64,000 nucleotides of DNA from an uncultured bacterium (GCA_903862465.1 CAIOYH010000163.1:7289-71288), one strand, 5' to 3'; shown: positions 23,631 through 45,249, numbered from the stretch's first letter. Made by a program: numbers and translations. Notes: generated from the letters alone by a model not told the origin.

Positions 23631-24947
23631 TTATTGCTTGATAATCTTGAAGGTTTTGTAATTGTTTATCTTAATGAAATAGATACCTTTGCTCAAAGTT
23701 TCCATTCCAATTGTAATTAATTCGTCGCTTGAAGTTACAGTTTTTAAAGTTTGTCCACATACATTGATCAGGTTAATGCTTATGGTTTCATGCGTGTTGT
23801 TTTGGACATTAACAAGGTTTTGAGTTGGGTTAGGATAGATGGAGATTTGATTTGCTATATCATTTGATGCCACAGCAGCAATCGTTTCTGTTTGATATCC
23901 ACAATAAATAGGGTTAGTCCAAGAGATGCTACTGTTCCCCGATAACAATTCAATACGATAGAATGCTCTTTGATAGGGAGTGTCGGTAAATTCTATCGTT
24001 GGATTTGAAGAAGAAATAGCAAGGGGTTGACTAAAGAGCGGTATGCCATTTTTAATCACTTTTACACTTAAATTTGAGCCACTGCCAACCAAATTAACGC
24101 GGAAAGTTACGGCAGAATTGGTGTCGGCAATGGCATCTCCCATCATATAATTAAAGGTATTATTCCCATGTATATCTGCAAAGAACTCACAACGAGGATC
24201 AGTTGGCGAATTGCTGATACAAACATGCCCGTTTCTTATTCCATCAATAATTCCTTCTCCATTTGGTTCTGCTGAATAAACCCATGTGGAAGGCGAACCT
24301 AAATTTGGATACACAGAAGGAAGCCAATAACTGAGTTTGTGCATATCGCTCCCACCCACGCCTGTAATTCTTTTGCCCGACATCAATAAAGGTTCCCAAA
24401 CGGTGGTAATAACACTATTATTATTGCTCAGCAGGTAAGAAATAGGTCCGTTGAGAATTTCTATACTTGGGAATTCGAAATTGTAGCCAACATCCCAAAG
24501 CAAAGCACCATTTAACGGATGATTGATAGAGAACAAACCTCCTTGCGATTTAACTATGCTCGCTGCTTTAGCAGGTTGTTTCGCTGTGTTGGCAGCAAAT
24601 ATAGAGTCGTAAGGAAATGGGGTGCTGTTCCAAATGCCTGCATGACCAATGTCGGTTGTCCATTCCATACCATAAAGCAAAATCATGTTGTTGCTATGAT
24701 AGGCTGTGTCCGACCACGTGATAGGATTGCCCACATAAGGCGTGTAAGTGTTGTCGTGGTCGGTAATCACATAAAAGTTGAATCCTTTGCTTTCGGCATT
24801 AGCAATAACGCTCGATACAGGCGATTCACCATCGCTGTAGGTGCTGTGGGAATGTAAGTCACCTTTATACCAACTCCCTGTTTGCGAAAAGCAAACGTTG
24901 GCGGTGATGACAATTACTGTCAAAATTGAAAATAATTTTTTCTTCAT
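23631..24947 (-). CDS. Secreted PHP-family (CehA/McbA-like) metallo-phosphoesterase with a T9SS type-A sorting domain
   Basis: Signal peptide MKKKLFSILTVIVITANVCFSQ. PHP motifs are GDLHSHSTYSDG, VITDHD, GMEW, INHP and GGSDMH. The C-terminus reads ISIYPNPTQNLVNV...GIYFIKINNYKTFKIIKQ. Confidence 0.8.
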   Translation of the reverse strand: MKKKLFSILTVIVITANVCFSQTGSWYKGDLHSHSTYSDGESPVSSVIANAESKGFNFYVITDHDNTYTPYVGNPITWSDTAYHSNNMILLYGMEWTTDIGHAGIWNSTPFPYDSIFAANTAKQPAKAASIVKSQGGLFSINHPLNGALLWDVGYNFEFPSIEILNGPISYLLSNNNSVITTVWEPLLMSGKRITGVGGSDMHKLSYWLPSVYPNLGSPSTWVYSAEPNGEGIIDGIRNGHVCISNSPTDPRCEFFADIHGNNTFNYMMGDAIADTNSAVTFRVNLVGSGSNLSVKVIKNGIPLFSQPLAISSSNPTIEFTDTPYQRAFYRIELLSGNSSISWTNPIYCGYQTETIAAVASNDIANQISIYPNPTQNLVNVQNNTHETISINLINVCGQTLKTVTSSDELITIGMETLSKGIYFIKINNYKTFKIIKQ

Positions 24948-25329: not shown

Positions 25330-27406
25330 TTGAATAAAAAAGAAAAATCGGAATTACTAAATAGAGAAGTTAGTTGGCTGTATTTCAATGGTAGGGTGTT
25401 GCAAGAAGCAGCAGACTCACGAAATCCATTGATAGAGCGACTTAGATTTCTTGGCATTTTTTCGAACAATAGAGACGAGTTTTTTCGTGTGCGTGTGGCT
25501 ACCTTGACGCGTTTGTTGAAAATACAGCAAACGCAGGAAGCAGGTTTGGCAGATCCCCGAAAAGTGTTAGACCAAATTGACGAAATTGTTAGTATCGAGG
25601 AAAAAGAATTTATGAAGACATATCATCAAATTCTTGAAGAGATGGCTTCTAAGAATTTGTTTATCATAAATGAAACGGAACTTTCTGCCGAGCAAGGCGT
25701 TTATCTGAAAAAATATTTTTTGGAAACCATTCGCCCCTGTCTTTTTCCGATAATGATTAGCAATTTGAAAGATATTTCGACCCTGCGCGACAGGTCAATA
25801 TATTTGGCGGTGAGTTTGCGCAGGAAAAGCAGGTTGATGAAGGAAGAATATGCGCTGATTGAGTTGCCCACCAAAACTATTTCGAGGTTTTGTATTTTGC
25901 CCACCGAGGGCGATAAAAAATTTGTGATTCTATTGGACGATATCGTGCGTTATTGTTTGTCGGATATATTTTCTGTTTTCGGGTGGGATGCTTTTAGCGC
26001 CTATACGGTGAAAATTACCTTGGATGCTGAGATTGATATTGATACCGATGTGTCGAAAAGCTTTTTGGAAACCATGACCGAAAGCCTGAAACAACGAAAG
26101 AAAGGAAATCCGGTGCGGTTTGTTTATGACAAAGACATGCCAATCGCGCTGTTAAAAACCTTAACCAAGCTGTTGAAGATTCGTAAAGAAGATCCCATCA
26201 GAGGTGGTGGCAGGTATCATAATTTTAAAGATTTTATGCACTTTCCCAATTTGGATCATCCCGAATTGGAGTATCCTCCTTTGCCTCCTTTGCGCCATAA
26301 AGATTTGCCACCCAACAGAAGCATACTTGCTGCGATTCGAAAAAAGGACATCATGCTGCATTATCCGTATCAATCTTTTCAAATCATCATTGATATGTTG
26401 CGCGAAGCTTCTATTGACCCCAAAGTGCGCTCCATAAAAATGACTATTTATCGCGCAGCAAAAAATTCTGATGTGATTAATGCCTTGCTGAATGCTGCCC
26501 GAAATGATAAGAAAGTTACAGTTTTCATGGAGCTGCAAGCACGATTTGATGAGCAAGCAAATATCTTTTGGACAGAACTTTTGCAGGAAGAAGGGGTGCG
26601 TGTCATACAAGGAATTCCCGGATTTAAGGTGCATAGCAAATTGATTTTGATTCGAAGCAAAGAGAATGAAAAAAACATCTTTTATGCCAACATCGGTACG
26701 GGGAATTTTAATGAAGATACGGCGCGTGTTTATGCCGATGATAGTTTGTTGACCTCCGACTCAAAGATTACTGCCGATGTGGCGAATGCCTTTAATCAAA
26801 TGGAAGCCAACTATCGTCCCATTAAATATAAATCTTTAGTGTTGGCGCCGTTCATGATGCGTAATACTTTCATGAAAATGATTTCGCATGAAATTCGAAA
26901 TGCAAAAGCCAATAAACCGGCATGGATTCTGATAAAATTAAACAATTTGGTTGACGAAACCATCATCCAAAAACTGTATAAAGCGAGTCAAGCAGGCGTG
27001 AAAAATCAATCTTATTGTCAGAGGTATTTGTGTGCTGAAACCCGGTGTGAAAGGTTTGAGCGATAATATAGAAGCCATTAGCATTGTTGACCGATTTTTG
27101 GAACACTCCCGTGTGCTTGTGTTTTGCAATGCAGGCAATCCTCACTATTTTATCACATCGGCTGATTGGATGATACGCAATTTCGACAACCGTATTGAGG
27201 TGGCGTGCCCCATTTATGACACGGATTTGCAAAAAGAACTCATGACGATGCTCCAAATTCAAATGGCTGATAATGTTAAAGCGCGAGATTTGAGCAGTAA
27301 AAAAATCAATGCGTATGCCAAATCATCAAAACGAATCATACACTCCCAATTAGAAATTTATAATTATTTTAAAACATCTCTTGAATCAGCAGAAACAGAA
27401 TCCTAA
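25330..27406 (+). pseudogene. ppk1: Polyphosphate kinase 1, frame broken by one extra A in the A5 run at 27001-27005 (fragments 25330..27066 and 27032..27406); probably a homopolymer sequencing error
   Basis: N-terminus LLNREVSWLYFNGRVLQEA, plus the PLD-like C-terminal domains. Deleting one A restores ..[44 protein letters not shown].., which matches my memory of the conserved PPK1 sequence. The restored length is 691 aa. The apparent start is a TTG, with no in-frame ATG nearby. Confidence 0.9.
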
Positions 27407-27448
27407 TTCATTTTAAGCTGCTACGATTAGAATTTATACGTAAAAACA

Positions 27449-27940
27449 ATGAAAACAATTTATATTATACGACACGGAAAATCGGCACACGACAATATTT
27501 ACGTTTCTGACCACAACCGTGCTTTGTTGCTCAAAGGCGAAGAGCGCACAAGATTAATCGCTGAATATATTAAGAAAAACAACTTCCCGTGTCAACTCAT
27601 TATCAGCAGTAGTGCCGTCAGAGCTGTCCACACGGCTCGCATCATTACGACTGCGTTTCCGCCTTTAGACTACGAAATTGTGGTGGAGCCACGCTTGTAT
27701 AACGCCTCGGCTTCAGAATATTTAGATATTTTGCTCGAATTGGACGATAGCATTTCTCAAGTTGCTTTAGTGGGCCACAATCCTGCTATCACCGAGTTTG
27801 CCAACAATTTCTTGAAAGAAAAATTAGAAAAAATGATTACGTCCGCCGTGGTTTGTATCGAAATCAATGCCGACAAATGGTCAGAAATACCTATTTCACC
27901 TTACGATAAAAAATTTATAATCACCTTTAAAATGTTATAG
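27449..27940 (+). CDS. SixA-like histidine phosphatase superfamily protein (phosphohistidine phosphatase-like)
   Basis: MKTIYIIRHGKSAHD (RHG catalytic motif) and VGHNPAITEF. At about 160 aa it is SixA-sized. Confidence 0.75.
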   Translation: MKTIYIIRHGKSAHDNIYVSDHNRALLLKGEERTRLIAEYIKKNNFPCQLIISSSAVRAVHTARIITTAFPPLDYEIVVEPRLYNASASEYLDILLELDDSISQVALVGHNPAITEFANNFLKEKLEKMITSAVVCIEINADKWSEIPISPYDKKFIITFKML

Positions 27941-27941
27941 T

Positions 27942-28844
27942 ATGTTATTTGCCTCTATTGATATCGGAACAAACGCTGTTCGTTTGTTATTTTCAAATGT
28001 TTATCTTCGCGATGAACAAATTTATGCTGAAAAAGCTTCCATCATACGCATCCCGATACGTTTGGGCGAAGATGTTTTTTCTATAAACTATATTTCTGAA
28101 GAGAAAATAGACCTTTTATTAAAAACCATGCGTGCCTTTAAACTGTTGATGGATGTTTACCGACCTCTTTCCTACATAGCCTGCGCCACTGCTGCCATGC
28201 GTGAAGCTTCCAATAGCGATGAGGTGGTCAGAAGAATTAAAGAAGAAGTGGGTATTGACATCAAGGTGATTAGCGGCAAGGAAGAAGCCGACATCGTTAC
28301 GGCAAGCAATCATGTGGTTTTGAAAGAGCCATTTAAGTACAAAATGTATGTGGATGTGGGCGGCGGAAGCACCGAAATTTCGCTTTTAAATCATCAAGGG
28401 CTTGTAGCATCAAAATCGTTTAAAATCGGAACCATTCGCTATTTAAAAAATAAAATAGATGAAAAGGAATGGGCAAAGATGCAAGATTGGTTGCTTGAAT
28501 TTAAAAAGGACTTTGGCAAGATTTATTTGGTGGGTTCGGGCGGCAACATCAACAAAATAACCAAAATGTATGGCAACAGAGATGCTTTTATGATTGAAAA
28601 GGAAGAGTTGATGAAAGCCTATGAGCAATTGAGCAAATTGACTTTAGCCGACCGCATCGAAATGTTGGGTTTGCGTCCCGATAGAGCCGATGTTATTGTG
28701 CCTGCGGCTATTATATTTATCAAAATAATGACTTGGATACGGACAGAAGTTGTGTATGTGCCTAAAATCGGATTGGCAGATGGATTGATTTATAAAGGTT
28801 ACTACGAATATCTTAAAAATAGTCCGGTTGAAAAATTCTTTTAA
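27942..28844 (+). CDS. ppx: Ppx/GppA-family exopolyphosphatase
   Basis: MLFASIDIGTNAVRLLF, ATAAMREASN and VDVGGGSTEISL are ASKHA/Ppx-GppA motifs. The start lies 1 nt after the preceding stop. Confidence 0.85.
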   Translation: MLFASIDIGTNAVRLLFSNVYLRDEQIYAEKASIIRIPIRLGEDVFSINYISEEKIDLLLKTMRAFKLLMDVYRPLSYIACATAAMREASNSDEVVRRIKEEVGIDIKVISGKEEADIVTASNHVVLKEPFKYKMYVDVGGGSTEISLLNHQGLVASKSFKIGTIRYLKNKIDEKEWAKMQDWLLEFKKDFGKIYLVGSGGNINKITKMYGNRDAFMIEKEELMKAYEQLSKLTLADRIEMLGLRPDRADVIVPAAIIFIKIMTWIRTEVVYVPKIGLADGLIYKGYYEYLKNSPVEKFF

Positions 28845-29088
28845 TGGCACCACATGGATTCACAGCTATTCTACAGCCGTGTGTAAACGAGATATGTTCG
28901 GTATCAACTCCGAAACGCATGTCATCGTGCGTGCTCAATTCATCATCAGCTACGATGCGCCTTGGATTGGACAATATCGAACACCGTGAATGTATCCTAT
29001 TGGCGGATTTCGTTCCTATTACATTAGATGTACAAAAACGAATATACGGAACGGCGAAAAACACATCGAAGGTAGCTAAAAGCATGCC

Positions 29089-29352
29089 GGCTACGCCTAG
29101 GACCACAATGGCGACGCCCAGGACCACAATAGCGACGCCCAGGACCACAATGGCGACGCCCAGGACCACAATGGCGACGCCCAGGACCACAATGGCTACG
29201 CCTAGGACCACAATGGCGACGCCTAGGACCACAATGGCGACGCCCAGGACCACAATGGCGACACCCAGGACCACAATGGCGACACCTAGGACCACAATGG
29301 CTACGCCTAGGACCACAATTGTTACGCCTAGGACAACAATTGCTTTAGCTAG
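29089..29352. repeat. 21-bp tandem array #3, 12 near-identical units plus a partial unit (consensus GGCGACGCCCAGGACCACAAT)
   Basis: Unit starts at 29089, 29110, ... 29320, exactly 21 bp apart, with only 1-3 substitutions per unit. The array is visibly more GC-rich than its flanks and sits between convergent genes. Confidence 0.95.
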
Positions 29353-29515
29353 TATGGTTTTGACGACCTCCGATAAAATCTTGTCAACTTTGAATCAATT
29401 GTTTATGCAATTGTGATTTATCACTTTTCTTGTTATAAAGTCGAAGAGAATGAATTGGAATATAATCTGAAAGAACTATATATCTGAAGATTTATTCAAC
29501 TTTCGGTATTCCATA

Positions 29516-31159
29516 TTATGTATCCCATTTACGCATTCTATCATACAAAATAATCCCTTCGTATTTATCAAGCAAGATAGATTCGGAGTGTAAAGTGTCG
29601 CAATGAATTTCGTTGGTAGAATAGATTTTCTTAAACTCGGTAGCTTCGGGCAAATCTATACGGCGTTGTTTGGGTTTGAAATTGATGAGAATTAAATATT
29701 TTTGATTTTCAAATTGACGAAAATATCCCAACACGCCATCCCTTCCTTTGATGAAAGGAATCCAATCTCCCTTATGCAATGCAGGATTTTCATTGCGCAA
29801 AGCGATTAAAAATTTATAATGATTCAAGATGGAATAATGAAGTTCTTCTAAGGTTTTCACGCAGCGGTGTCGCCATTTGGTGTCAATCGGAAGCCAAGGT
29901 TTGACAGTAGAAAATCCACCGAAATCATCATCGTCCCATTGCATAGGCGTGCGGCATTTGTCTCTGCCGCTATAAAGGGGCCAAATCTTTTTGCCCAAAG
30001 GGTCTTTCAGTTCGTTTTTCGGAATCCGCACATTGCCCATGCCAATTTCTTCGCCATAATAAATAAAAGGCGTTCCTTTTACGGTGAATTGAAACAAAGC
30101 GATGAGTTTTGCCACGTCGTGTTTGTTGCGTCGAAACCACAAACGATTGTAGTTGCGCCCCAAATCATGATTGGAAAACACATGAGTAGCCCATTCAATT
30201 TTATCGGCATTGTTGTTCCATTTTTTGAGATATTTGTAGTAAACCCGAGCGTTGAATGGGCGAAACACCAACGAAAAATCGAATGCCAAATGCAAGCGTC
30301 TTTTGTTTTTGTTGATATATTTCATCACTGTTTTAGGCTTTCCGGGCGGCAACACATAAATTTCGCCTATGCTGATGCGGTTGGGATACGTGTCCAAATG
30401 TTTTCTCAAACGTTCCACAACCTTGAAAGCCCCTTTTCGATTTCTGTTATAAATATGCTTTTGAAACCATGGGAGAAAGGCAAACACGGGGTTTGAGCGC
30501 AATTGCTTATCCTTCACTATCATGTTTATCACATCCAAGCGAAAGCCATCCACGCCCTTTTGGAGCCAAAAATCTATAATCGCAAAAAATTCGTCAGCCA
30601 TTTCTTTGCAGCGCCAATTCAAATCGGGTTGTTCTTTCAAAAAAGAGTGCATGTAATAGCTTTGCGTGGTTTCATCAAACTGCCATGCACTGCCGCCGAA
30701 AGCATTTTTCCAATTGTTTACAGGTTTCTTTTTAAGCCCGTCAGACCATAGATACCAATCTCGTTTCGGGTTTTCGCGTGATGATTTCGATTCCAAAAAC
30801 CATGGGTGTTGGTTAGAGGTATGATTCATCACCAAATCCATTATCACGTGAATATCGCGCTGATAACACGCATGCAATAACTGATTGAAATCGTCCATCG
30901 TTCCATAAATAGGATCAATTTCATAATAATCGCTTATGTCATATCCAAAATCTTTTTGCGGCGATTTATAGATGGGCGAAAGCCAAATGGCGTTCACTCC
31001 TAAATCTTTAATGTAATCAAGTTTGCGAATAATGCCCTGCAAATCGCCCAACCCATCGTGATTCGAATCATAAAAACTCATGGGGTAAATGTGGTAAACA
31101 ACCCCGTGTTTCCACCACACATGCTCCGAATCTTCCGCTTTAGTCGGGGAAATGAACAT
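29516..31159 (-). CDS. GH13 alpha-glucosidase / oligo-1,6-glucosidase-like glycoside hydrolase
   Basis: WWKHGVVYHIYPMSFYDSNHDGLGDLQGI..LDYIKDLGVNAIWLSPIYKSPQKDFGYDISDY, DLVMNHTS, GFRLDV and GEIY are GH13 conserved regions. The start overlaps the upstream gene by 20 nt. Confidence 0.9.
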   Translation of the reverse strand: MFISPTKAEDSEHVWWKHGVVYHIYPMSFYDSNHDGLGDLQGIIRKLDYIKDLGVNAIWLSPIYKSPQKDFGYDISDYYEIDPIYGTMDDFNQLLHACYQRDIHVIMDLVMNHTSNQHPWFLESKSSRENPKRDWYLWSDGLKKKPVNNWKNAFGGSAWQFDETTQSYYMHSFLKEQPDLNWRCKEMADEFFAIIDFWLQKGVDGFRLDVINMIVKDKQLRSNPVFAFLPWFQKHIYNRNRKGAFKVVERLRKHLDTYPNRISIGEIYVLPPGKPKTVMKYINKNKRRLHLAFDFSLVFRPFNARVYYKYLKKWNNNADKIEWATHVFSNHDLGRNYNRLWFRRNKHDVAKLIALFQFTVKGTPFIYYGEEIGMGNVRIPKNELKDPLGKKIWPLYSGRDKCRTPMQWDDDDFGGFSTVKPWLPIDTKWRHRCVKTLEELHYSILNHYKFLIALRNENPALHKGDWIPFIKGRDGVLGYFRQFENQKYLILINFKPKQRRIDLPEATEFKKIYSTNEIHCDTLHSESILLDKYEGIILYDRMRKWDT

Positions 31160-33803
31160 CGTTCATCAGTTTGTGTAAAATCCTATCGGAAGTATAATCT
31201 TTAGCTCTCAGTAGCGCCTTTTCTTTAAACTCAGCTCTATGATTCTCATCGCTGAAAAAGAAGGTAACGCGGTCAATCATTTCCTTTAGGTTGTTGACTA
31301 AAAATCCCGTTTCATTGTCCAATATAATATCTTTCGGACCTTTCGTTTTGTAAGAAACCACAGGCAGCCCACAGCTCAATGCTTCCAACACCACACAACT
31401 GAAGGTGTCGAACTTAGAAGGCAACAACAACAAATCGGCTGAGGAATATATCTCGGGCAATTGTTCATGATTCACCCATCCCATGAAAACAGCATCAGGC
31501 AAAGCTTCTTTCAACTCCGCTTCAGCAGGACCGGTTCCTGCTATCACCACCTTAATGTCTTTGAACTTATCTTTGATGGAACGATACACATCCACCAATT
31601 CAAAAACGCCTTTTTCATTGCTGATGCGTCCGGCAAAAAGCAAGACAGGTTCATTGTTTTTTAGACCGAAAAGTTCTTCTTTTTTACTTACAGAGGGAAC
31701 AAAAAAGTTGTCAACCCAATGTGCGGTCAAATGCACTTTTTCAGGAGCAATTTCCATGTTTCTTCCTGTCAGCCATTTTTCTTGGTCGGTGTTCAACACA
31801 AAAACTTGGTCGTAAGCGCGATAATAAGCGCGTAACATTCTGCGGAAACGGTCCAAGTTCGACCGTTCTAAGTTCAGCACTTTTCTGCCAAACATTATCC
31901 AATCCGTATGAATAAAGAAATTTGTTTCCACCGTAAAAGCATGCTTCAAATACAATGCCGCCAAACCCATTGCTCCTTCCGTAGAACACATCACGCGGTC
32001 ATATTCATTCCGTTGAAATATTTGATGAATCTCTAAAAAATTTGGGATATTAAAATTCTGATTCACATACATAGGCAGTGTGAACTCCAACAAAGGCTTC
32101 ACCACAATCAAATGGTCGTCCGCTTGAATCGTATTGCTGCAAACGATAATATCTATAGGTAGATTTCTGCTTTTGATTTCTCTATGTAATGTTTGCAAAA
32201 ACATCGAAACCCCATTCTTGTCGTCGTAGGTATCCGTGAGCCATAACATTCTCTTAGGATGTTTGAACTTGTCAAGCTTCTCAGCAAACTGATTCAGCAA
32301 AACACGATTGTTATACAACACTTTTGCGCTTGTGTAATGTGCTGCCAAAATCAAACCGGAAGCCAAAAACGGAAACGACAATCCATCTAAAAAACCTTGT
32401 ATGTCGAGTTGCTTCTTTTTTCCTTTCTTTTTATCGTTTTTGCCCAACAACACTCTTAAGTCACTTGGTATTTCTAATTTCTGTAGGATGGTATTAAAAT
32501 CAATACTTTTAAATTCGTCCGTATCCGTCAAATCTTTTAGTTTCTTATCCAAACGACCATAGAGTAATTCCACAAGATTGGTATGAATAGCATTGATGGC
32601 ATTCTGATATGATTGTATATTTTCACCTTTTCTATCATGATGAGCACTTGCAATTTTGATAGCTTCATCAAAAACGGGTTTATAGCCTTTCGAAATAAAC
32701 AAACGTTTCATTTTGTTGGGTTGTTTGCCCAAAATACTTTTGTGAAACAGTTCGATAAACTTCATCGTAACTTTATGATGTTGCAATTCCGAAAAAGCAT
32801 TAGAGATGATGAAAGCTAAAAACTTATCGGTGTTTGTCCCTTTGTGCAGCAATATTCGCAGCAGACCTGAATCCTTTTTGTTTAAACCAATTTGGCATAC
32901 ATAATCCAACAGCGCAATCGTAAGCTTCTCCGAATTGTTGTGCGAACCATAAGGCACCATTTTTCCTGCCCTGAGTGCCTCTAAAGCTAACTCCGATGGC
33001 GTATTATGTTTCAAGCGTTCGCTTAAATTTGGGATATGTAAATACGTTCCTGTTTGTCCGGCAAACAAACCAATATGACTATCGGATCCTCCCGACATAG
33101 ATTTCTGATAGGGATTGTTACTATATTTTAGTACATCCACTTTATGCTTTAAAGCGTATTCCACTATCACTTTTGGCGTCAAATGCTCAATCCATTCTTT
33201 CGTGAGCATGTTTTGCCAAGAATCACGTTGACCATTAAATATCTCAAAGCGGTCGAAAACTACCGATAATTTCTCAAAAAACTCAATCGGTGGGATACTT
33301 GACGAATAATAGTAGAGCGGATGTGCCCATATAGTTGGGATATCATTCTGAAAAGCGTATTCCAAAAACTGATACAGATTTCGTCTTATTTTATTTAAAA
33401 CCTTTTCTTGTTCTTGATTAAAACCAAAAGTCAATACATGAATTCCAATATTGAAGTCGGGCACCGTACAAGTGAACTCAGCCCCCACCAAAACATCTAT
33501 TCCTTTTTCTTGCAACGAAAAACAGGAACGGGCATTGTTGTGATTGGTGATGGTGATTGCATCCGCGTTGTTTTCTTTCAACATACGGATTAAATCTTCT
33601 GTTTCCAACCACGTTTCAGGGACTTTTAATATTCTCCCCAAAATTTCATCGGGCACATCGCTATTCAAATCATGGCAATGTAAATCTATTTTTAATAAAT
33701 CTTTTGTGGGATATCTTTTGTCTTGCACGGTTTGAAACTCCGCTAACGATTGAATGATCTGCGATTGCAGATTGATAGTGCTTATGGGTAGTGATTTTTT
33801 CAT
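31140..33803 (-). CDS. Fusion protein: N-terminal PHP phosphoesterase domain, central unknown region, C-terminal GT4 (GT-B) glycosyltransferase
   Basis: PHP motifs are DLHCHD, ITNHNN, GAEF, IHVL, WAHP and GGSDSH. The GT4 region reads LLFAGRISNEKGV..VIAGTGP....LLLLPSKFDTFSCVVLEALSCGLPVV..K.GP.DII. Confidence 0.8.
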   Translation of the reverse strand: MKKSLPISTINLQSQIIQSLAEFQTVQDKRYPTKDLLKIDLHCHDLNSDVPDEILGRILKVPETWLETEDLIRMLKENNADAITITNHNNARSCFSLQEKGIDVLVGAEFTCTVPDFNIGIHVLTFGFNQEQEKVLNKIRRNLYQFLEYAFQNDIPTIWAHPLYYYSSSIPPIEFFEKLSVVFDRFEIFNGQRDSWQNMLTKEWIEHLTPKVIVEYALKHKVDVLKYSNNPYQKSMSGGSDSHIGLFAGQTGTYLHIPNLSERLKHNTPSELALEALRAGKMVPYGSHNNSEKLTIALLDYVCQIGLNKKDSGLLRILLHKGTNTDKFLAFIISNAFSELQHHKVTMKFIELFHKSILGKQPNKMKRLFISKGYKPVFDEAIKIASAHHDRKGENIQSYQNAINAIHTNLVELLYGRLDKKLKDLTDTDEFKSIDFNTILQKLEIPSDLRVLLGKNDKKKGKKKQLDIQGFLDGLSFPFLASGLILAAHYTSAKVLYNNRVLLNQFAEKLDKFKHPKRMLWLTDTYDDKNGVSMFLQTLHREIKSRNLPIDIIVCSNTIQADDHLIVVKPLLEFTLPMYVNQNFNIPNFLEIHQIFQRNEYDRVMCSTEGAMGLAALYLKHAFTVETNFFIHTDWIMFGRKVLNLERSNLDRFRRMLRAYYRAYDQVFVLNTDQEKWLTGRNMEIAPEKVHLTAHWVDNFFVPSVSKKEELFGLKNNEPVLLFAGRISNEKGVFELVDVYRSIKDKFKDIKVVIAGTGPAEAELKEALPDAVFMGWVNHEQLPEIYSSADLLLLPSKFDTFSCVVLEALSCGLPVVSYKTKGPKDIILDNETGFLVNNLKEMIDRVTFFFSDENHRAEFKEKALLRAKDYTSDRILHKLMNDVHFPD

Positions 33804-34023
33804 GGTATTGGATTTGCATCAATTACATCGTTTTGAATGTTCAAAATTTGTAATTGAAATTTGAGAGCAAATGTAAATGAATTCTTTGGAATCAAACAAA
33901 TATTTCTCGCCTTTTTTCATCTAAATGCTATAAACGGAAAAGGGGTTAGTATTTTTGGGGTAAACAGCATTTCTCGTTACTGAAAAAAACGCGAATAAGC
34001 ATTTCAGTTCCTTTTGTAAATAC

Positions 34024-34455
34024 TTAGTTGTTATCAAGTTCTTGTATGAAATTTTGAACGGATTGTTTTATTTGGTCACGAACAACAATGGTCTGTGCTA
34101 TTTTCTCCTGATGTGTTCCTTCAAATTTCGATGGGTCATCAAACGACCAATTTATTATTTTAACCATGCCGGGGAATATCGGACAACTTTCTGCTGTCTT
34201 GGCATCGCAAACGGTGATAACATATTCAAATATTCTTCCTTGTTTGAAAAAATCAAACACATCGTTTACTTGGTTTGATGAAATGTCAATGCCTTCTTGC
34301 AACATGACTTCAACAACAATTGGGTTTAAGTTTCCTGGTTCCAAACCGGCACTCTCCACTTCAAACTGTCCATTGCCATACTCTTTTAAAAAGGCTTCTG
34401 CCATTTGACTTCGTGCCGAATTGTGAACACATAGAAATAATACTTTTGTTTTCAT
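34024..34455 (-). CDS. arsC: Arsenate reductase, LMW-PTP (thioredoxin-coupled) type
   Basis: MKTKVLFLCVHNSARSQMAEAF (CX5R P-loop), plus the downstream Cys pair VCDAKTAESCP and a DP motif. Confidence 0.85.
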   Translation of the reverse strand: MKTKVLFLCVHNSARSQMAEAFLKEYGNGQFEVESAGLEPGNLNPIVVEVMLQEGIDISSNQVNDVFDFFKQGRIFEYVITVCDAKTAESCPIFPGMVKIINWSFDDPSKFEGTHQEKIAQTIVVRDQIKQSVQNFIQELDNN

Positions 34456-34570
34456 ATACTTTTATTTTGATTAATTAATAAAACTGTTTTGATGGAATTG
34501 AGTTATATATGCCTTAATTGAATCTTGGAAATGTTTTATGGCAGACTCATTTTTGCAAACATTAAGGTTC

Positions 34571-34780
34571 TTAATCATTAGAAACCCCCAACAAATCCAA
34601 CATAGTTTCCATAAAATCTGTTTTTGCTATTTCTGCTTTTTCGATACCTTTTTTATAAACCTCACAGGCTTTTTGATATTGACCGGAACTTTGAAACATT
34701 TTGCCAATCTCCAATAAATTATTGAAATAGCTTTCTTGCAACGAAAGCGCTTTTTCTTTTTCTGATAAAATAATATTCAT
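34571..34780 (-). CDS. Small helical protein (69 aa), tandem paralog of 34857..35054
   Basis: LSLQESYFNNLLEIGKMFQSSGQYQKACEVYKKGIEKAE aligns with LTVQESYLENLIKLGLLFENSGQHQKAFDVYKKGLENAE in the neighbour. It looks like a single TPR-like helix hairpin. Confidence 0.55.
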   Translation of the reverse strand: MNIILSEKEKALSLQESYFNNLLEIGKMFQSSGQYQKACEVYKKGIEKAEIAKTDFMETMLDLLGVSND

Positions 34781-34856
34781 AAGTGTTTAATTGTAAAATA
34801 ATTGAAGTATGTATTAAAGAAACAGAAACGGTATTAATCATAGCAAGCTTGAAGCA

Positions 34857-35054
34857 TTAGTCCAACAGACCAAGCATGGTACCTTGTATAGTATTTACAG
34901 CTTTTTCTGCATTTTCAAGTCCTTTTTTATAAACATCAAAAGCTTTTTGATGTTGGCCTGAATTTTCGAATAACAAGCCTAACTTAATTAAATTTTCGAG
35001 ATAACTTTCTTGAACAGTAAGCAGATTTTCAAGCTCAACAAAACCATTTTCCAT
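34857..35054 (-). CDS. Small helical protein (65 aa), tandem paralog of 34571..34780
   Basis: Conserved at the protein level with its neighbour while the DNA has diverged, which argues that it really is coding. Confidence 0.55.
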   Translation of the reverse strand: MENGFVELENLLTVQESYLENLIKLGLLFENSGQHQKAFDVYKKGLENAEKAVNTIQGTMLGLLD

Positions 35055-35495
35055 AAAGAATATATATTATAAATTATGGTTGCAAAAGTAATAGCGCAAT
35101 ATTACTTACATATTAAGGGAATATTATTTCTGTATTAAGAAATGAAAGATAAATAAGACTTGTCAAAAACAATCCCTCTAAATTAGTTCAAACTACAAAA
35201 AGATAAAAATGATTTACAAAAGCCATGAAAATACAATTACCTCGTTATATCCTTTAGGCTATAAATCTTTTTCAAATCATTAGTAAACTGGTTCGACTTA
35301 ATACTTTCAAGGGCTACCTTATAGGAGATTCAGATTTTGCTTGATTGTTGAATTGTTTTCCTACTGTATTCGAATACGTATATTATGTTTACAGACATAA
35401 AAAAGCCAATGTCACAATATAATTATATCTAAATATCTATATAACAAATATATATAATTGTATTGCAACTATTCATGACACTATTTCAACTTAAA

Positions 35496-35767
35496 ATAAT
35501 GCTATATTTGGTAGAGATACCACTATGATTGGTTGAAATAGTGCTATATTAGGTAGGAATAGTGCTATATTTGGTGGGAATAGTGCTATGGCGGCTAGAG
35601 ATAGTGCTATGGCGGCTAGAGATAGTGCTATGACGACTAGAGATAGTGCTATGACGACCAGAGATATCGCTATGCCGGTTAGATATACTGCTATGGAGAG
35701 AAAAATAGTACTATATTTGGTAGAAATAGTGCTATGGCAACTTGAGATAGTGCAATGCCGTGCCGAA
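35496..35767. repeat. 21-bp tandem array #4, 13 units (consensus ATAGTGCTATGGCGGCTAGAG)
   Basis: Unit starts at 35496, 35517, ... 35685, then 35705 (one 20-bp unit), 35726 and 35747. The central units are near-identical and the outer ones degenerate. Confidence 0.95.
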
Positions 35768-35867
35768 ATTTTTAATTCATAGATATGAAATCTAAAAAAT
35801 TTCAACGTGTCATAATTAAATTTACATTATATTTTTTCAAAAATAATTTTCACATGAAAATATTTTG

Positions 35868-35875
35868 TACTTTTG
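35868..35875 (+). promoter_or_regulatory. Candidate -7 promoter box (TAnnTTTG) within the 13-mer gtacttttgttgc
   Basis: tacttttg lies 24 bp upstream of ATG 35899. The 13-mer is identical to 13751-13763. Confidence 0.45.
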
Positions 35876-35898
35876 TTGCAACCAAAAAAAATAATAAT

Positions 35899-36762
35899 AT
35901 GAAAAAAATTCTACTTCTATTATGCTTAGTAATGGCTATAAACATTACTGTTTCAGCCCAAGACTCAATAGTAACCTATAGGTTCAAAGTCAATAAAGAT
36001 AGTTCGCAAACTTGGGGAAATGCTTACAATGTTGACAATATTGTGTTGAGAGATGCAACTTATCATCCTCTTTATGCTTACACATCAGGTGTTGATGGCA
36101 ACTCTCCCTTAGATTATTGCCTTTCTTCCACAGTTTGGACACTTGGACTTGATTCACTAAAAAACTATTACACATCATTTGCAACTACTGCTTATACCAA
36201 TATACTTGTATCGAGCCGGCAGAAATCATCCACAACAGGACCTCGCGATTTTAAGTTGCAATACAAAGTTGGTGCGCCGGGGACATGGGCAGATGTAACT
36301 GGCGGAACAGTTGTTTGTGCCAACGATGCTTGGATTTCGGGAACATTAACCGACATCGCGCTTCCTTTGGATTGCGATAATCAACCTTCGGTCTATTTAC
36401 GTTGGGTGGTAAATACTAACACCTCAGTTGGTTTAGCGACAATTGCTGCTGCTGGCACATCTAGAATTGATAATATTGTTATTAAAGGAACTGCGATGGG
36501 TGTTGGCATCAAAACCAATGATTTGAACCAAAACATTAGTATTTATCCCAATCCATCGAATGGGAATTTCACTATTACGAATGCTTCAGAGAAATCTGTT
36601 TCTATCGAGATTATGGATTTAGTGGGTAAATTGGTATTTCAATCTCAATCGGCTGAAAGATATGTCAAACTTGATTTGGCAGATGTCAATAAAGGCGTTT
36701 ATTTCGTCAGAATCACCGACCAATCGGGCAACAAAGTCGTGAAGAAACTTGTCATAAAATAA
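35899..36762 (+). CDS. Secreted protein of unknown function with a T9SS type-A sorting domain
   Basis: ATG 35899 gives the signal peptide MKKILLLLCLVMAINITVSAQ; the track ORF starts earlier, inside the repeat array. The C-terminus reads ISIYPNPSNGNFTI...GVYFVRITDQSGNKVVKKLVIK. Confidence 0.85.
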   Translation: MKKILLLLCLVMAINITVSAQDSIVTYRFKVNKDSSQTWGNAYNVDNIVLRDATYHPLYAYTSGVDGNSPLDYCLSSTVWTLGLDSLKNYYTSFATTAYTNILVSSRQKSSTTGPRDFKLQYKVGAPGTWADVTGGTVVCANDAWISGTLTDIALPLDCDNQPSVYLRWVVNTNTSVGLATIAAAGTSRIDNIVIKGTAMGVGIKTNDLNQNISIYPNPSNGNFTITNASEKSVSIEIMDLVGKLVFQSQSAERYVKLDLADVNKGVYFVRITDQSGNKVVKKLVIK

Positions 36763-41565: not shown

Positions 41566-43086
41566 CTACACGTTTTCCGTTGGTAACAAATTCAACTTGA
41601 TTGGACAGTTTACACAATTATAATCAAAGTTGGACTGCATTTTTTTCTGTCGCACGTGTGTGAAAGCATCATTAAAGAAAACGTCATAAAGTGAAGTGTT
41701 TTCGTTGAGTATTCCCATGGAGTTGTTATAATAGGAGCAGGGCAAAATTTTCTGTTGATCAACGATCATAATTTCATTAAAAGGGCGCAAACAAGATGCC
41801 TCCAATAAAAATCCGAAATCCTTATCCTCTCCTTTGGCATAAAACGTTTCTTTGGATTCAATGATTTCCTCATCTTGATTATCAGCCTTCACATTTCTAA
41901 AATCTGACAAATCCATGTTCACAATTCCATCAGACACATATACTTCTTCCGTTTCAAAAGGTTCAGGCAAGCGCACATCTAAATTATATTTTCGCGATTC
42001 ATCCACTATCAATTGCCTAAAATAGTTGTATTTTGCTTTATTATTGCTAAGCATTTCCTCGTGTTCACTAAAATAGATATTGCCCACCACGTGTCTAAAG
42101 TCAATTATACCAACCCCCAATTCAGCACACATCACGACAAAGGCAACTGCTTCCTCGATATTTGAATTCATCAACACAAAATCCATAAATAGTAAGGGAA
42201 ATGTTCGTTTAAATCGTTTTTTCAAATCGCGCAATGCCATTATATTGCTTAATATCAAATCATAATTGGCTCCCGCACGAATCTTCTCTAAAGTTTGTTT
42301 CTTCACACTGTCAAAGGATAATATTACGTGCGAACAGTTGTTTTCAATGATAATTTTCCTCGCCTTGGAATTTAGCAACATGCCATTGGTACACAACCCT
42401 ATCTCCATGTGTGGATAATTCTGATGCAACATGCGCATAATATCGTCAAAATGCTTCGACATCAGCGGCTCAAATCCGCAGGAAAGCATGATGTGTTTCA
42501 CATAAGGTGCAATATCATGCAAATAATGCTGCAATTCCTCGGCAGTAATAGCTTTTGTGGGTTGCGAATAAATTTCCTGCTCCTTGTAATGACACATGAT
42601 GCATTTCAAGTTGCACTTATTGGTGATATCCATCCGAACAGTAAGCCAAGGATGCGTCTTCAATGTCTGCTTAAACTTCTGCTCAAGTAAAGATTGAGTA
42701 GCAATAGTTTCATGTTTTTCATCATCCACCTCAATTTCTCTAATCTCCGATGGATTGAGGTCTAACATTAGTGGGATTTTTTTTGATATGCCATCAGATA
42801 ATTCCACCACAACCTCTAATTCCAAGCCTCCACGCAAATCAATTGCTTCCTTTTCGGCTATGATGCGAAATCCGCTATGATTATTATCCGAAAACCCCTT
42901 AAAATGTTGTGCCACATCTGCCCTCAACAAACCGTAATCGAAATGATAGCCTGCTGAATCTGCGTTGACAACTCGTATATTTATAATTTTATGAAAACAC
43001 AACAGCCATCCCTCAATTTGATTCGACTGTAGCACATTATCCGCTTTGGCAGGAAAATCAATGCAATATAGGAAGTTGATTATCAT
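41566..43086 (-). CDS. Radical SAM enzyme with a SPASM/twitch-like C-terminal Cys cluster and an extra ~150-aa N-terminal domain
   Basis: ITNKCNLKCIMCHY is the CX3CX2C motif. C-terminal cysteines occur in CLRPFNEIMI..ILPCSYY and NCVNCPIK. The N-terminal IEGWLL..RADVAQHF segment resembles domains seen on polysaccharide-modifying enzymes. Confidence 0.8.
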   Translation of the reverse strand: MIINFLYCIDFPAKADNVLQSNQIEGWLLCFHKIINIRVVNADSAGYHFDYGLLRADVAQHFKGFSDNNHSGFRIIAEKEAIDLRGGLELEVVVELSDGISKKIPLMLDLNPSEIREIEVDDEKHETIATQSLLEQKFKQTLKTHPWLTVRMDITNKCNLKCIMCHYKEQEIYSQPTKAITAEELQHYLHDIAPYVKHIMLSCGFEPLMSKHFDDIMRMLHQNYPHMEIGLCTNGMLLNSKARKIIIENNCSHVILSFDSVKKQTLEKIRAGANYDLILSNIMALRDLKKRFKRTFPLLFMDFVLMNSNIEEAVAFVVMCAELGVGIIDFRHVVGNIYFSEHEEMLSNNKAKYNYFRQLIVDESRKYNLDVRLPEPFETEEVYVSDGIVNMDLSDFRNVKADNQDEEIIESKETFYAKGEDKDFGFLLEASCLRPFNEIMIVDQQKILPCSYYNNSMGILNENTSLYDVFFNDAFTHVRQKKMQSNFDYNCVNCPIKLNLLPTENV

Positions 43087-43098
43087 AAAAAGCCTATC

Positions 43099-45249
43099 TT
43101 ATTTTAATCCGAAATTATGTACACCTAACGAAAGATTCGGATTATAACATGGGTCGTTCTCCACATAGTTTTTCCATTTCTTTCTAAAAAGATTCACTTC
43201 TTTGACGTGTTTTTTATAGGATTCGCTTGTACTGTGTGGATGTCCACGCGACATAGATTCGTAGTGATACAACTCACAATGGGGGACATATAAGTTGCGA
43301 TAGCCCGCTTCAAGCACCTTCAAACAAAAATCCACATCATTATACTCTGTGCCAAAACTTTCGTCAAAGCCACCTACTTCATCAAAAACTTTTGTACGCA
43401 CCATAAAACAAGCACCGGTAACAGCAGAATAGGTGTTCAATATGTTTACATAATTAAAATAACCCGGACCCTCACGGTCTTCGCCAACCAAGACATGACC
43501 TGCTGCGCCTCCAAGCCCAATAATCACCCCTGCATGTTGAATCGTATCATTGTCATATAAAAGCTTAGCTCCTACCACGCCCACTTCTTTCCGTTGCGCA
43601 TGTTCCATCATCGCTTCTAGCCAATCAGGAGTAATCACTTCCGTGTCATTATTCAGCAAAAGCAAGAATTCGCCCGTTGCATGTTTTCTTCCTAAATTAA
43701 TCAAACGAGAAAAATTGAATGCTTCTTTGTCTTGAATACATTTAAAAGAAATAGCATTCTGTTTTGTGTATTGTTTCACTAAATGAAAGAATTCCTTTTG
43801 GTCGCTGTTATTATCAATCAAAATGATTTCAAAATTTCGATAGGTTGATTTCTTTTCAATGGATCTTAAACACTTCTTTAATAGCTCTGCTTGGTTTTTG
43901 GAAGGAATAATGATGCTCACCTTAGCGTTTCTATTCACCAATCCGAAACGAATACTATACCCCCTGAAACTATCTAAGAAATCGACCGTAGCTTCCATGC
44001 CGCGACGTCTCATGGCTTCGGTGAGTGCCATCTGAGCTGCTCGATATGCATAAGGCTTCACAGCTTCGCTCATGGCGGCACTTTCGCTGTGGATGCGCCA
44101 ATGATACAGCACTTCAGGGATATGAATCACATTATTATAGATTTCTGTGTAGCGTAAAATCAAATCATAATCCTGACTGCCTTCATAGCCCACGCGCCAT
44201 CCACCAACATCACGAAGTTGTGCAGTTTTGAATACACACACATGACCAAGATAGTTTCTAGAAAGCAAGTTGTCAGGACACCAATCCGGTTTGAAATGTG
44301 GGTCGGAATGCAATCCCCATTCATCAATTTTATCCTCGTCAGAATAAATCAAGTCAGCGCCGCCTTTTCTGTTGATAGCTTTGGCTATTTCATAGAGCGC
44401 ATCTTCGCGCAGAATATCATCATGATCCATCAACACAGCATATTCACCTGTTGCTAATTCGAGTGCAGAGTTTGATGCGCGTGAGATATGTCCGTTTTGT
44501 TCTCGATACACCACTTTGATGCGTTGATCTGCTTTGCAATATCTTTCAAGGGTTTCTCTGATTTCAACGTCCGTAGAATTATCATCAGCAATACATATTT
44601 CCCAATACTCATAAATCTGACCAATAATCGAATCTAATGCTTTTGTAAACAAATCAATTCGAGGATTATACACAGGCATCACAATGCTAAACAAAGGGCG
44701 TTGATTGAAGCTATTGATACTTCTTTTGTGTTGTTTGATGATTTCTTTGTTCAACCTTTTTCGCATCAGATATTGCGAATAGTGAGCCGTCGTGGCAAGA
44801 TAATTTCCCACCACTTCAATGATCACCACCTTACGAGTTTCGAACATAAGATATAGCGTACGAAACACTTTGGTCAGAAACAAGCGAAAAATGCGTCCGC
44901 CGCGTTTGAAGATATATTGAAATAAAATAGTAAAGAAGTTTCGCTTCTTTCCTTTATTTACATTTGATCGGAGTCTGCTAAGATACAAATAGAAAAACTT
45001 TCGGAGTTTTACTAAGGTGCTGTTTTCGAGTATAGCCAATTGTTGAATCAACTTGTCCATGCTTCGCAAAGCCGTGTCAAGCTGTTTGTTCAATTCCTCT
45101 ATCTCTCTTGATGCTCGCTTAAACTGTTTTTTCCAATAATGTGGGTCGCCTTCATCTCCCAAATCAGATGAATCAACGGATTCATTCAGTTTTAGTTTAT
45201 CCTTTTCACGGTCTTTTTTACCCTGCATATTATATTCGCTTCGCATCAT
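43099..45249 (-). CDS. Dual-domain GT2 glycosyltransferase with an N-terminal coiled-coil region
   Basis: It has two GT2 cores. The first is FSIVMPVYNPRIDLFTKALDSIIGQIYEYWEICIADDNSTD...DHDD. The second is VSIIIPSKNQAELLKKCLRSIEKKSTYRNFEIILIDNNSD...NNDTE. The N-terminus is charged and heptad-like. Confidence 0.85.
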   Translation of the reverse strand: MMRSEYNMQGKKDREKDKLKLNESVDSSDLGDEGDPHYWKKQFKRASREIEELNKQLDTALRSMDKLIQQLAILENSTLVKLRKFFYLYLSRLRSNVNKGKKRNFFTILFQYIFKRGGRIFRLFLTKVFRTLYLMFETRKVVIIEVVGNYLATTAHYSQYLMRKRLNKEIIKQHKRSINSFNQRPLFSIVMPVYNPRIDLFTKALDSIIGQIYEYWEICIADDNSTDVEIRETLERYCKADQRIKVVYREQNGHISRASNSALELATGEYAVLMDHDDILREDALYEIAKAINRKGGADLIYSDEDKIDEWGLHSDPHFKPDWCPDNLLSRNYLGHVCVFKTAQLRDVGGWRVGYEGSQDYDLILRYTEIYNNVIHIPEVLYHWRIHSESAAMSEAVKPYAYRAAQMALTEAMRRRGMEATVDFLDSFRGYSIRFGLVNRNAKVSIIIPSKNQAELLKKCLRSIEKKSTYRNFEIILIDNNSDQKEFFHLVKQYTKQNAISFKCIQDKEAFNFSRLINLGRKHATGEFLLLLNNDTEVITPDWLEAMMEHAQRKEVGVVGAKLLYDNDTIQHAGVIIGLGGAAGHVLVGEDREGPGYFNYVNILNTYSAVTGACFMVRTKVFDEVGGFDESFGTEYNDVDFCLKVLEAGYRNLYVPHCELYHYESMSRGHPHSTSESYKKHVKEVNLFRKKWKNYVENDPCYNPNLSLGVHNFGLK

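Follow-up and report, generated by a model that had tools for sequence, protein, structure and literature searches.

The subject of this analysis is a cassette of two genes in a window of 64,000 nucleotides of DNA from an uncultured bacterium (GCA_903862465.1, CAIOYH010000163.1:7289-71288). The window is part of a freshwater Bacteroidota chromosome, because the neighbouring proteins carry sorting domains of the type IX secretion system (T9SS) and near-identical bins come from lake metagenomes. The cassette spans 4.3 kb; its first gene encodes a protein that joins a PHP-type phosphoesterase domain to a GT4 glycosyltransferase domain (hereafter PHP-GT4), and its second gene encodes a GH13 alpha-glucosidase. 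An initial annotation, made from the DNA sequence alone, proposed that PHP-GT4 is a synthase and phosphatase for an alpha-glucoside in a single polypeptide, with the GH13 enzyme as its partner. Nucleotide coordinates given without a locus number are those of the whole window, and both genes lie on the minus strand, as follows.

31140..33803 (-), three-module PHP/helical/GT4 protein of 887 aa (open reading frame and translation, homologues, AlphaFold model)
32940..33698 (-), predicted PHP metallophosphoesterase domain, residues ~36-288, TrpH/RNase-AM-like (invariant ligands, Foldseek, NCBIfam)
32259..32936 (-), basic all-helical middle domain, residues ~290-515 (models, conservation)
31143..32255 (-), predicted GT4 glycosyltransferase domain of GT-B fold, residues 517-887 (Pfam, Foldseek, invariant catalytic residues)
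29516..31159 (-), predicted GH13 alpha-glucosidase of 547 aa (Pfam, nearest solved relatives, motifs)
31140..31159 (-), 20-nt overlap between the PHP-GT4 stop codon and the GH13 ATG (read from the sequence)

Translation confirms both open reading frames at the coordinates and lengths that had been assigned to them (31140..33803, 887 aa; 29516..31159, 547 aa). The overlap is read directly from the sequence, the GH13 ATG occupying positions 31159-31157 and the PHP-GT4 TAA positions 31142-31140. Its length of 20 nt hinges on the choice of that ATG, because an in-frame GTG ~39 nt downstream (~31120) would leave a short gap. In related loci, designated here by L numbers, the two genes overlap by 26 nt (L006) and 23 nt (L007), as called from the first ATG, or are separated by 5 nt (L010), 73 nt (L008) and 111 nt (L014). 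Both proteins are cytoplasmic, with no signal peptide in either and no clear transmembrane segments. For PHP-GT4, the latter follows from a peak 19-residue hydropathy of only 1.55 (residues 470-488), which is below the typical threshold and the same as that of a buried core strand of the GT4 domain; membrane anchoring was rejected on this ground.

The fusion of PHP and GT4 domains in one protein is confirmed, for the PHP part by its metal ligands, by Foldseek and by the Pfam match of a sister-clade member, and for the GT4 part by Pfam. An assembly artefact or chimera as the source of the fusion is ruled out by the number of full-length homologues. The AlphaFold model of the full 887-aa chain has a predicted local distance difference test score (pLDDT) of 84.3 and a predicted template-modelling score (pTM) of 0.84, the latter of which suggests that the domains hold a fixed mutual arrangement; a second model, of residues 1-515, has a pLDDT of 78.7. 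A weak Pfam match to 'GT4-conflict' raised the possibility of a defence system, for which PADLOC returned no match with the glycosyltransferase protein.

The C-terminal domain exceeds the curated Pfam cut-offs and matches the GT-B fold, in agreement with the initial assignment to GT4. The scores are 118.3 bits for Glycos_transf_1 (PF00534, E=3.4e-34, cut-off 26.4), 102.8 bits for PF13692, and 39 bits for Glyco_transf_4 (PF13439, E=1.1e-9, cut-off 28.5). Foldseek retrieves MshA, BshA, GlgM, PimB' and sucrose-phosphate synthase (SPS) with E values of ~1e-17 to 1e-15 and target-normalised TM-scores of 0.72-0.81, at ~15-18% sequence identity to the top structures. The GT4 signature (GRxxxxKG, (E/D)x7E and an N-domain His) is present, and its residues R726, K731, D799, E807 and H632 are intact in 239/239 close homologues from the two clades, A and B, described below. 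The domain is thus predicted to be a bona fide GT4 enzyme that catalyses retaining transfer. When a GT4 profile of both clades is compared with solved proteins, the best score, with the longest coverage, is that of the SPS Tll1590 (105 bits), with BshA at ranks two and three (101 and 93 bits) and MshA after it (88 bits). SdgB (84 bits), the archaeal (Pyrococcus) glycogen synthase GlgA (82 bits) and GlgM (79 bits) come next, and enzymes of the lipid or lipopolysaccharide (LPS) type are lower, i.e., PimB' at 75 bits and PglA and WlaC at ~62 bits. On this ranking the domain would not group with lipid-, LPS- or glycogen-type transferases, a grouping that would have spoken against the initial annotation, because SPS, BshA and MshA score above the lipid/LPS-type PimB' and PglA. 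The score order, with its modest margins, favours small-molecule and often anionic or phosphorylated acceptors over lipid-linked ones. None of the curated NCBIfam models reaches its cut-off (BshA, 77.5 against 273.7; MshA, 46.3 against 462.5) and no SPS model is among the 25 best of 44 matches; by these scores the protein is not a member of the SPS, BshA, MshA or any other curated family. In an alignment with MshA the His-Thr pair H632-T633 is conserved, and a clade-A-specific cluster of arginines (R652, R654, R655 and R658) aligns at MshA R154/R155. R154 is a ligand of the phosphate group of inositol phosphate, which makes the cluster no more than a lead.

The N-terminal domain is predicted, from sequence and from the model, to be a structural member of the PHP superfamily. 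In an alignment of 31 homologues the ligands H42, H44, H88, E109, H122, H161, D241 and H243 are invariant, and the motifs DLHCHD, ITNHNN, GAEF, GIHVL, WAHP and GGSDSH are found. Of the nine canonical ligand positions, eight can thereby be identified; the ninth is uncertain, with D49 or E63 as candidates. The earlier description of a complete domain with all metal-binding motifs holds for the fold and the eight ligands and was slightly generous in the word 'all'. The Pfam PHP model (PF02811) gives 16-17 bits on the 887-aa protein, below its cut-off of 26.4, and is matched only below threshold in 8 of 13 relatives; P0191, a member of the sister clade, passes it (26.7 bits) together with PHP_C (25.5 bits against 21.3). 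We regard the PHP identity as established despite the sub-threshold Pfam scores, because the ligands are invariant, the model is recognized by Foldseek, and distant fusions pass PHP and PHP_C.

The best Foldseek match of the N-terminal model is the PHP domain of RNase AM (7ug9, E=4.5e-5, probability 1.0). Other PHP-fold matches are 9etk (V. cholerae RNase AM), the PHP domain of PolC, BAD_1165, and Cv1693, a phosphatase of 3'-phosphoadenosine 5'-phosphate (pAp); for the entries 7ug9, 9etk, 3o0f and 2yb1 the probability is 1.0 and E ranges from 4.5e-5 to 0.02. The likeness to these nucleotide-directed structures is remote (10-16% identity, TM-score 0.37-0.52). The sole NCBIfam model matched is that of the CehA/McbA metallohydrolases, over residues 38-281 (E=4e-4, 19.9 bits against a cut-off of 80). 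A sequence search of the PDB with the N-terminal domain finds nothing by single sequence or clade-A profile, and a profile of both clades gives marginal matches to 3e0f (E=0.011) and 9etk (E=0.039). The best structural and profile matches are thus TrpH/YciV (RNase AM) and the pAp phosphatases of COG0613 (Cv1693 and BAD_1165), with which the domain has in common the PHP fold and the DLHxH, TxH, E, H, AHP and GSDxH elements. Unlike these enzymes, it is joined to a GT4 domain in one chain and has, after the HxH motif, a loop (residues 48-63, low pLDDT) that is particular to the PHP-GT4 family. Another protein of the window with a PHP domain, unrelated to this one and 438 aa long (23631-24947, minus strand), is presumably secreted because it has a T9SS C-terminal sorting domain.

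Between the two catalytic domains, both AlphaFold models (full chain and residues 1-515) place helices from residue 290 to 510. This region of ~225 aa has an isoelectric point (pI) of 9.64, many residues that are invariant in the 31-homologue alignment, including the motif FLDGLSFPFLAS, and a conserved hydrophobic helix that reaches the hydropathy peak of 1.55. Sequence searches and Foldseek detect no homologue of it in Pfam or the PDB. What had been called an unknown linker of ~250 aa is therefore without a Pfam or PDB match, as described, but it is a conserved all-helical domain of ~225 aa and not a loose linker. An identity as a CHAD-like polyphosphate-binding domain was considered and rejected (hhalign probability 0.06%).

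The same architecture recurs widely. A word-indexed search returns 1,205 relatives, of which the best 120 are 863-940 aa long with at least 96% query coverage, the named ones all being Bacteroidota. An exhaustive HMMER search of 1.84 billion cluster representatives, with residues 1-515 as query, gives 746 matches at E<=1e-3, of which 469 have E<=1e-10. Members of clade A (~880-920 aa) match the whole N-terminal half and occur, beyond Bacteroidota, in Fibrobacterota and in metagenome-assembled genomes of Gamma- and Deltaproteobacteria. Members of the sister clade B (~780-830 aa) match the PHP domain only, at 30-36% identity, followed by a shorter middle region and then GT4; they come from Coriobacteriia, Spirochaetia, KSB1, Chitinivibrionales, Marinimicrobia, Lentisphaerota and Latescibacterota. 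The order of the fused domains is constant across at least 469 clusters at 50% identity in many phyla. This is a real and widespread family, of at least eight phyla and hundreds of sequence clusters, mostly from uncultured and often anaerobic bacteria, and in the literature on PHP-glycosyltransferase fusions we found no characterised member and no account of proteins that join PHP to GT4. None of the eight PHP ligands is missing in 238 of 239 homologues (120/120 in clade A and 118/119 in clade B). Four divergent proteins of clade-A architecture (P0161, P0164, P0174 and P0225) have lost most of the PHP ligands and kept all the GT4 catalytic residues. From the intact sites in the set of 239, and from the retention of GT4 where PHP is degenerate, we therefore conclude that both catalytic centres are under strong purifying selection across two deep clades and that the glycosyltransferase is the core function of the family. 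On one short metagenome contig (L022:186-1732) the PHP domain (303 aa) and the middle plus GT4 domains are two open reading frames 51 nt apart, which reflects either a gene that is truly split or an artefact of sequencing.

The kinship of the PHP domain bears on a reading in which no sugar phosphate is made. The GT4 domain would act in one step on a non-phosphorylated acceptor, as BshA and TreT do, and the PHP domain would hydrolyse a nucleoside diphosphate (NDP) or pAp, or be regulatory, relieving product inhibition instead of dephosphorylating a sugar product. The nearest PHP structures are those expected for such a role, i.e., RNase AM (7ug9 and 9etk), BAD_1165, and Cv1693, whose solved structure has AMP and phosphate bound; the profile match to 3e0f points the same way, as do the high rank of BshA, an enzyme with a non-phosphorylated acceptor, and the lineages in which a degenerate PHP domain accompanies an intact GT4. 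However, the resemblance to nucleotide-directed PHP enzymes is remote, as noted above, and eight ligands kept in almost every homologue speak for a chemical step that is essential. Nor are we aware of any case in which an NDPase is joined to a bacterial GT4, and we regard a one-step synthase as unlikely.

The second gene of the cassette encodes a complete, cytoplasmic GH13 enzyme (Pfam Alpha-amylase PF00128, E=1.6e-130, 436.8 bits). It contains the motifs QPDLN, GFRLDVINM (with D209), GEIY (with E266) and FSNHD, and the nucleophilic Asp, the acid/base Glu and the Asp that stabilises the transition state are all in place in its conserved regions. Among solved proteins it is closest to Halomonas HaG (3wy1, E=5e-122), Xanthomonas XgtA (6aav) and QsGH13 (7voh), and then to oligo-1,6-glucosidases and sucrose isomerases, and it falls below every NCBIfam equivalog cut-off, including those of TreC, TreS and MalZ. 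Judged from these relatives, it is probably an alpha-glucosidase of the oligo-1,6-glucosidase / GH13_23 type, a label that leans on the assignment of 3wy1, 6aav and 7voh to subfamily 23 in CAZy. HaG, XgtA and QsGH13, which are disaccharide-specific alpha-glucosidases, align with it over almost the full length, with the same catalytic motifs; the present enzyme, like them, has no signal peptide and, unlike them, has its gene coupled to that of a biosynthetic GT4. Enzymes of the HaG type (GH13_23) act on disaccharides specifically, as alpha-glucosidases and also as transglucosylases, and their genes are normally linked to those for sugar uptake.

An alpha-glucan could be the product instead, if the GT4 domain acted like the archaeal or actinobacterial glycogen synthases or like GlgM, the maltose-1-phosphate synthase, with GH13 trimming or transglycosylating the glucan and PHP removing a priming or terminal phosphate. 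Pyrococcus GlgA and GlgM are indeed close in the profile ranking, the NCBIfam model glgA_Coryne is matched at E=1.5e-18, a GT5 glycogen synthase lies three genes off in L020, and HaG and XgtA are good transglucosylases. Against these stand the likeness of the GH13 to exo-acting disaccharide alpha-glucosidases, and not to a branching enzyme, GlgE or amylomaltase, and the higher scores of SPS, BshA and MshA; in addition, glgB, glgC and glgP are not linked in clade-A loci. An alpha-glucan pathway is, on balance, highly improbable.

The pairing of the two genes was assessed in 13 distinct clade-A lineages from genomes, of which 10 could be judged and three are on contigs that end too early. A GH13 orthologue (48-97% identity) is directly downstream in six of the ten, i.e., in the window (with the near-identical bins L004 and L005), L006, L007, L008, L010 and L014. 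The PHP-GT4/GH13 pairing is thus found in six distinct lineages of Bacteroidota, at identities as low as 58%, with the two genes overlapping or no more than 111 nt apart. The other flanking genes differ among these loci (response regulators, Omp28, signal peptidase, RsgA and Band 7), and for that reason we take the two-gene cassette to be the conserved unit. Clade-B genes are mostly solitary, in variable contexts. In two loci a different, upstream gene overlaps the clade-A-type PHP-GT4 gene, encoding a protein of 772 aa in a Fibrobacterota genome (L023:5686-8004, overlap of 4 nt) and of 398 aa on a Deltaproteobacteria contig (L024:6833-8029, overlap of 29 nt). Neither protein has a Pfam or PDB match, and no relationship between the two is detected. 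The homologues of the 772-aa protein number more than 1,000, each of them labelled hypothetical; the best PDB match of the profile of this family is the GH63 enzyme TTHA0978, through a 'WfRDsaF' motif, at a non-significant E=0.28, and the 772-aa protein may be another dedicated glycosidase partner.

Polyphosphate genes are found near PHP-GT4 in 3 of ~19 distinct loci, which is more than chance suggests, as a post hoc observation. In the window (25330-28844, plus strand) and in L014 (15496-18534, 59% identity), ppk1, a sixA-like gene and ppx are convergent to the cassette, and in L018 (10457-13125) a CHAD-PPX operon is directly downstream of the clade-B gene. A polyphosphate linkage was rejected as the explanation of the cassette for its presence near only those three loci. 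The ppk1 gene of the window (25330-27406, plus strand) is split by a frameshift into an open reading frame at 25330-27066, which covers the N, middle and C1 domains and positions 1-58 of C2, and an overlapping one at 27032-27406, which covers C2 positions 67-165. The ~98% identical PPK of L004 is one intact reading frame of 690 aa, with AAAA where the window has AAAAA near 27000; the frameshift reflects either an error of sequencing or a pseudogene of recent origin.

These neighbours, together with the basic middle domain, could be accommodated by lipid remodelling, in which PHP would remove a phosphate or head group from a phospholipid or phosphatidate to leave diacylglycerol and GT4 would convert it into a glycolipid, as a single-chain analogue of the PlcP-Agt pathway of phosphate starvation. 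Consistent with this are ppk1, the sixA-like gene and ppx beside the cassette in the window, ppx and ppk downstream in L014, the CHAD-PPX operon downstream in L018, an alkaline phosphatase nearby and a UDP-glucose dehydrogenase directly upstream in L017, and an MMPL transporter downstream in L023. The high pI (9.6) of the helical domain, its conserved hydrophobic helix and the presence of glycolipid synthases among the weak NCBIfam matches can be read similarly. However, the protein has no clear transmembrane segment, lipid-type GT4s score below the soluble small-molecule ones, the polyphosphate genes are confined to three loci, and lipid remodelling leaves no place for a tightly coupled cytoplasmic GH13 of disaccharide type. 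PlcP is a calcineurin-type phosphoesterase, paired with a membrane-associated diacylglycerol glycosyltransferase, and the phosphoesterase here is PHP, so that the protein does not belong with PlcP-Agt, although a PlcP-like mode of action is still compatible. We consider lipid remodelling very unlikely.

We tentatively favour, without great confidence, a self-contained cytoplasmic pathway for a small alpha-glucoside, in which a synthase/phosphatase fusion makes the compound and GH13 recycles it. The sugar moved by the retaining GT4 domain would be a hexose, probably glucose with UDP- or ADP-glucose as the donor, and the acceptor a small, anionic and probably phosphorylated molecule. The PHP domain, with a trinuclear metal centre, would then strip the phosphate from the glycoside-phosphate and so make synthesis irreversible, taking the part played by phosphatases of the haloacid dehalogenase (HAD) type in the sucrose, trehalose, glucosylglycerol and mannosylfructose pathways. 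The helical domain would keep the two catalytic modules in one compact body, and the putatively co-transcribed GH13_23-type disaccharide alpha-glucosidase would hydrolyse the product on mobilisation. The mechanism is conjectural in its phosphorylated intermediate, in what the PHP domain hydrolyses, in its sugar donor and in its product, for which sucrose- or trehalose-like disaccharides are the leading guesses.

The idea of a single-polypeptide synthase/phosphatase for an alpha-glucoside, as first annotated, is partly supported by the intact catalytic centres, the cytoplasmic location, the GH13 pairing and the GT4 ranking, at the top of which SPS, BshA and MshA all use small-molecule acceptors, two of them phospho- or carboxy-acceptors. 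Several observations weigh against it. The closest PHP structures (RNase AM/TrpH and the pAp phosphatase Cv1693) are directed to nucleotides and not to sugar phosphates. The GT4 scores miss the curated cut-offs and differ by small margins, with glycogen synthase and GlgM close behind. GH13 is not adjacent in L001/L009, L002, L003 and L012, nor in any of the six clade-B loci examined. About half of the homologous loci are without it, and the cassette has neither a transporter nor a gene for the donor sugar linked to it. In a freshwater lineage, moreover, the need for osmoprotection is not obvious. The proposal of GH13 as the functional partner fits the six lineages in which it is the only conserved neighbour, and is weakened by the loci that lack it. 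That the acceptor is phosphorylated and the product a compatible solute was overstated, as nothing found here identifies either.

The statement that known GT4 synthases work with a separate HAD phosphatase leaves out the forms of SPS with a fused domain resembling sucrose-phosphate phosphatase (SPP). Two-domain SPS (GT4 plus SPP-like HAD) and fusions of the synthase and the phosphatase of trehalose 6-phosphate (TPS/TPP; GT20 plus HAD) likewise combine a glycosyltransferase with a phosphatase-type domain in one chain, and no solved GT4 scores higher with the family profile than the SPS Tll1590. In PHP-GT4, however, the putative phosphatase is an N-terminal PHP domain with a trinuclear metal site and not a C-terminal HAD domain, and the helical domain of 225 aa is an extra module between the two. 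The distance from SPS is also evident in the models that stay below cut-off and in the ~15-18% identity to solved SPS, MshA and BshA. Some SPS proteins carry inactive SPP-like domains, a situation that resembles the rare members with a degenerate PHP domain. MshA and BshA, of mycothiol and bacillithiol synthesis, are the closest GT4 structures by Foldseek (3c4q at 2.3e-17, 6n1x and 5d00) and have the His-Thr, GRxxxxKG and (D/E)x7E motifs in common with PHP-GT4, but bshB/bshC and mshB/C/D are absent from the neighbourhood, the partner is a GH13, and the scores are far below the equivalog cut-offs. To our knowledge, the product of MshA is a glycoside-phosphate for which the phosphatase is still unidentified. 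A precedent beyond sucrose is Saci_1249 of Sulfolobus acidocaldarius, a GT4 trehalose-6-phosphate synthase outside the classical GT20 family, which is a single-domain protein of 444 aa with a separate HAD-type phosphatase and is confined to archaeal TACK lineages (PMC7688234). It is likened to PHP-GT4 by description, and because of it GT4 enzymes are known to make disaccharide phosphates other than that of sucrose (PMC7688234).

It is conceivable, though we hold it more doubtful than probable, that PHP-GT4 proteins constitute a widespread and unrecognised class of single-chain glycoside synthases in which PHP and not HAD dephosphorylates the intermediate. Should that be the case, the synthesis of a disaccharide or compatible solute would have its first sugar-phosphate phosphatase of the PHP type. 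A fused synthase/phosphatase is the standard route to sucrose, trehalose, glucosylglycerol and mannosylglycerate, the examples known to us all using HAD, and a version built on PHP would extend this scheme by a new type of enzyme. It would account for an alpha-glucoside, possibly a new one, in many bacteria of the FCB (Fibrobacteres-Chlorobi-Bacteroidetes) group, spirochaetes and Coriobacteriia, with hydrolase partners that are specific to lineages, GH13 in Bacteroidota and, in Fibrobacterota, the 772-aa family that has no annotation. A large family whose present annotation is just "glycosyltransferase" would also gain a testable function, and an as yet unknown intracellular glycoside could come to light in abundant freshwater and sediment Bacteroidota.

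Upstream of the cassette, one further feature was picked out by eye ~65 nt before the PHP-GT4 ATG.

33868..33896 (-), candidate Bacteroidota-type promoter (TTTG, 17 nt, TACATTTG)

This candidate was judged against the Bacteroides consensus, TTTG / TAnnTTTG. A sigma-70 scan performs no better than on shuffled sequence, and no riboswitch or other Rfam family is matched at E<=1 across 29000-36000. A gap of 220 nt with the candidate promoter parts the cassette from an upstream gene (34024-34455, minus strand) of the low-molecular-weight phosphatase/ArsC-like type, which scores 113 bits with the arsenate reductase model, below its cut-off, and is kept at that place only in the closest relatives, L004-L006. 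Farther away, a protein of 716 aa with two GT2 domains is encoded directly upstream of a same-strand radical-SAM protein of 506 aa (41566-45249, minus strand). On the other side, very large proteins (891-1558 aa) that are cargo of the T9SS are encoded in a cluster at positions 1378-22992, with Big_7, PKD, LTD, CHU_C and Por_Secre_tail domains.

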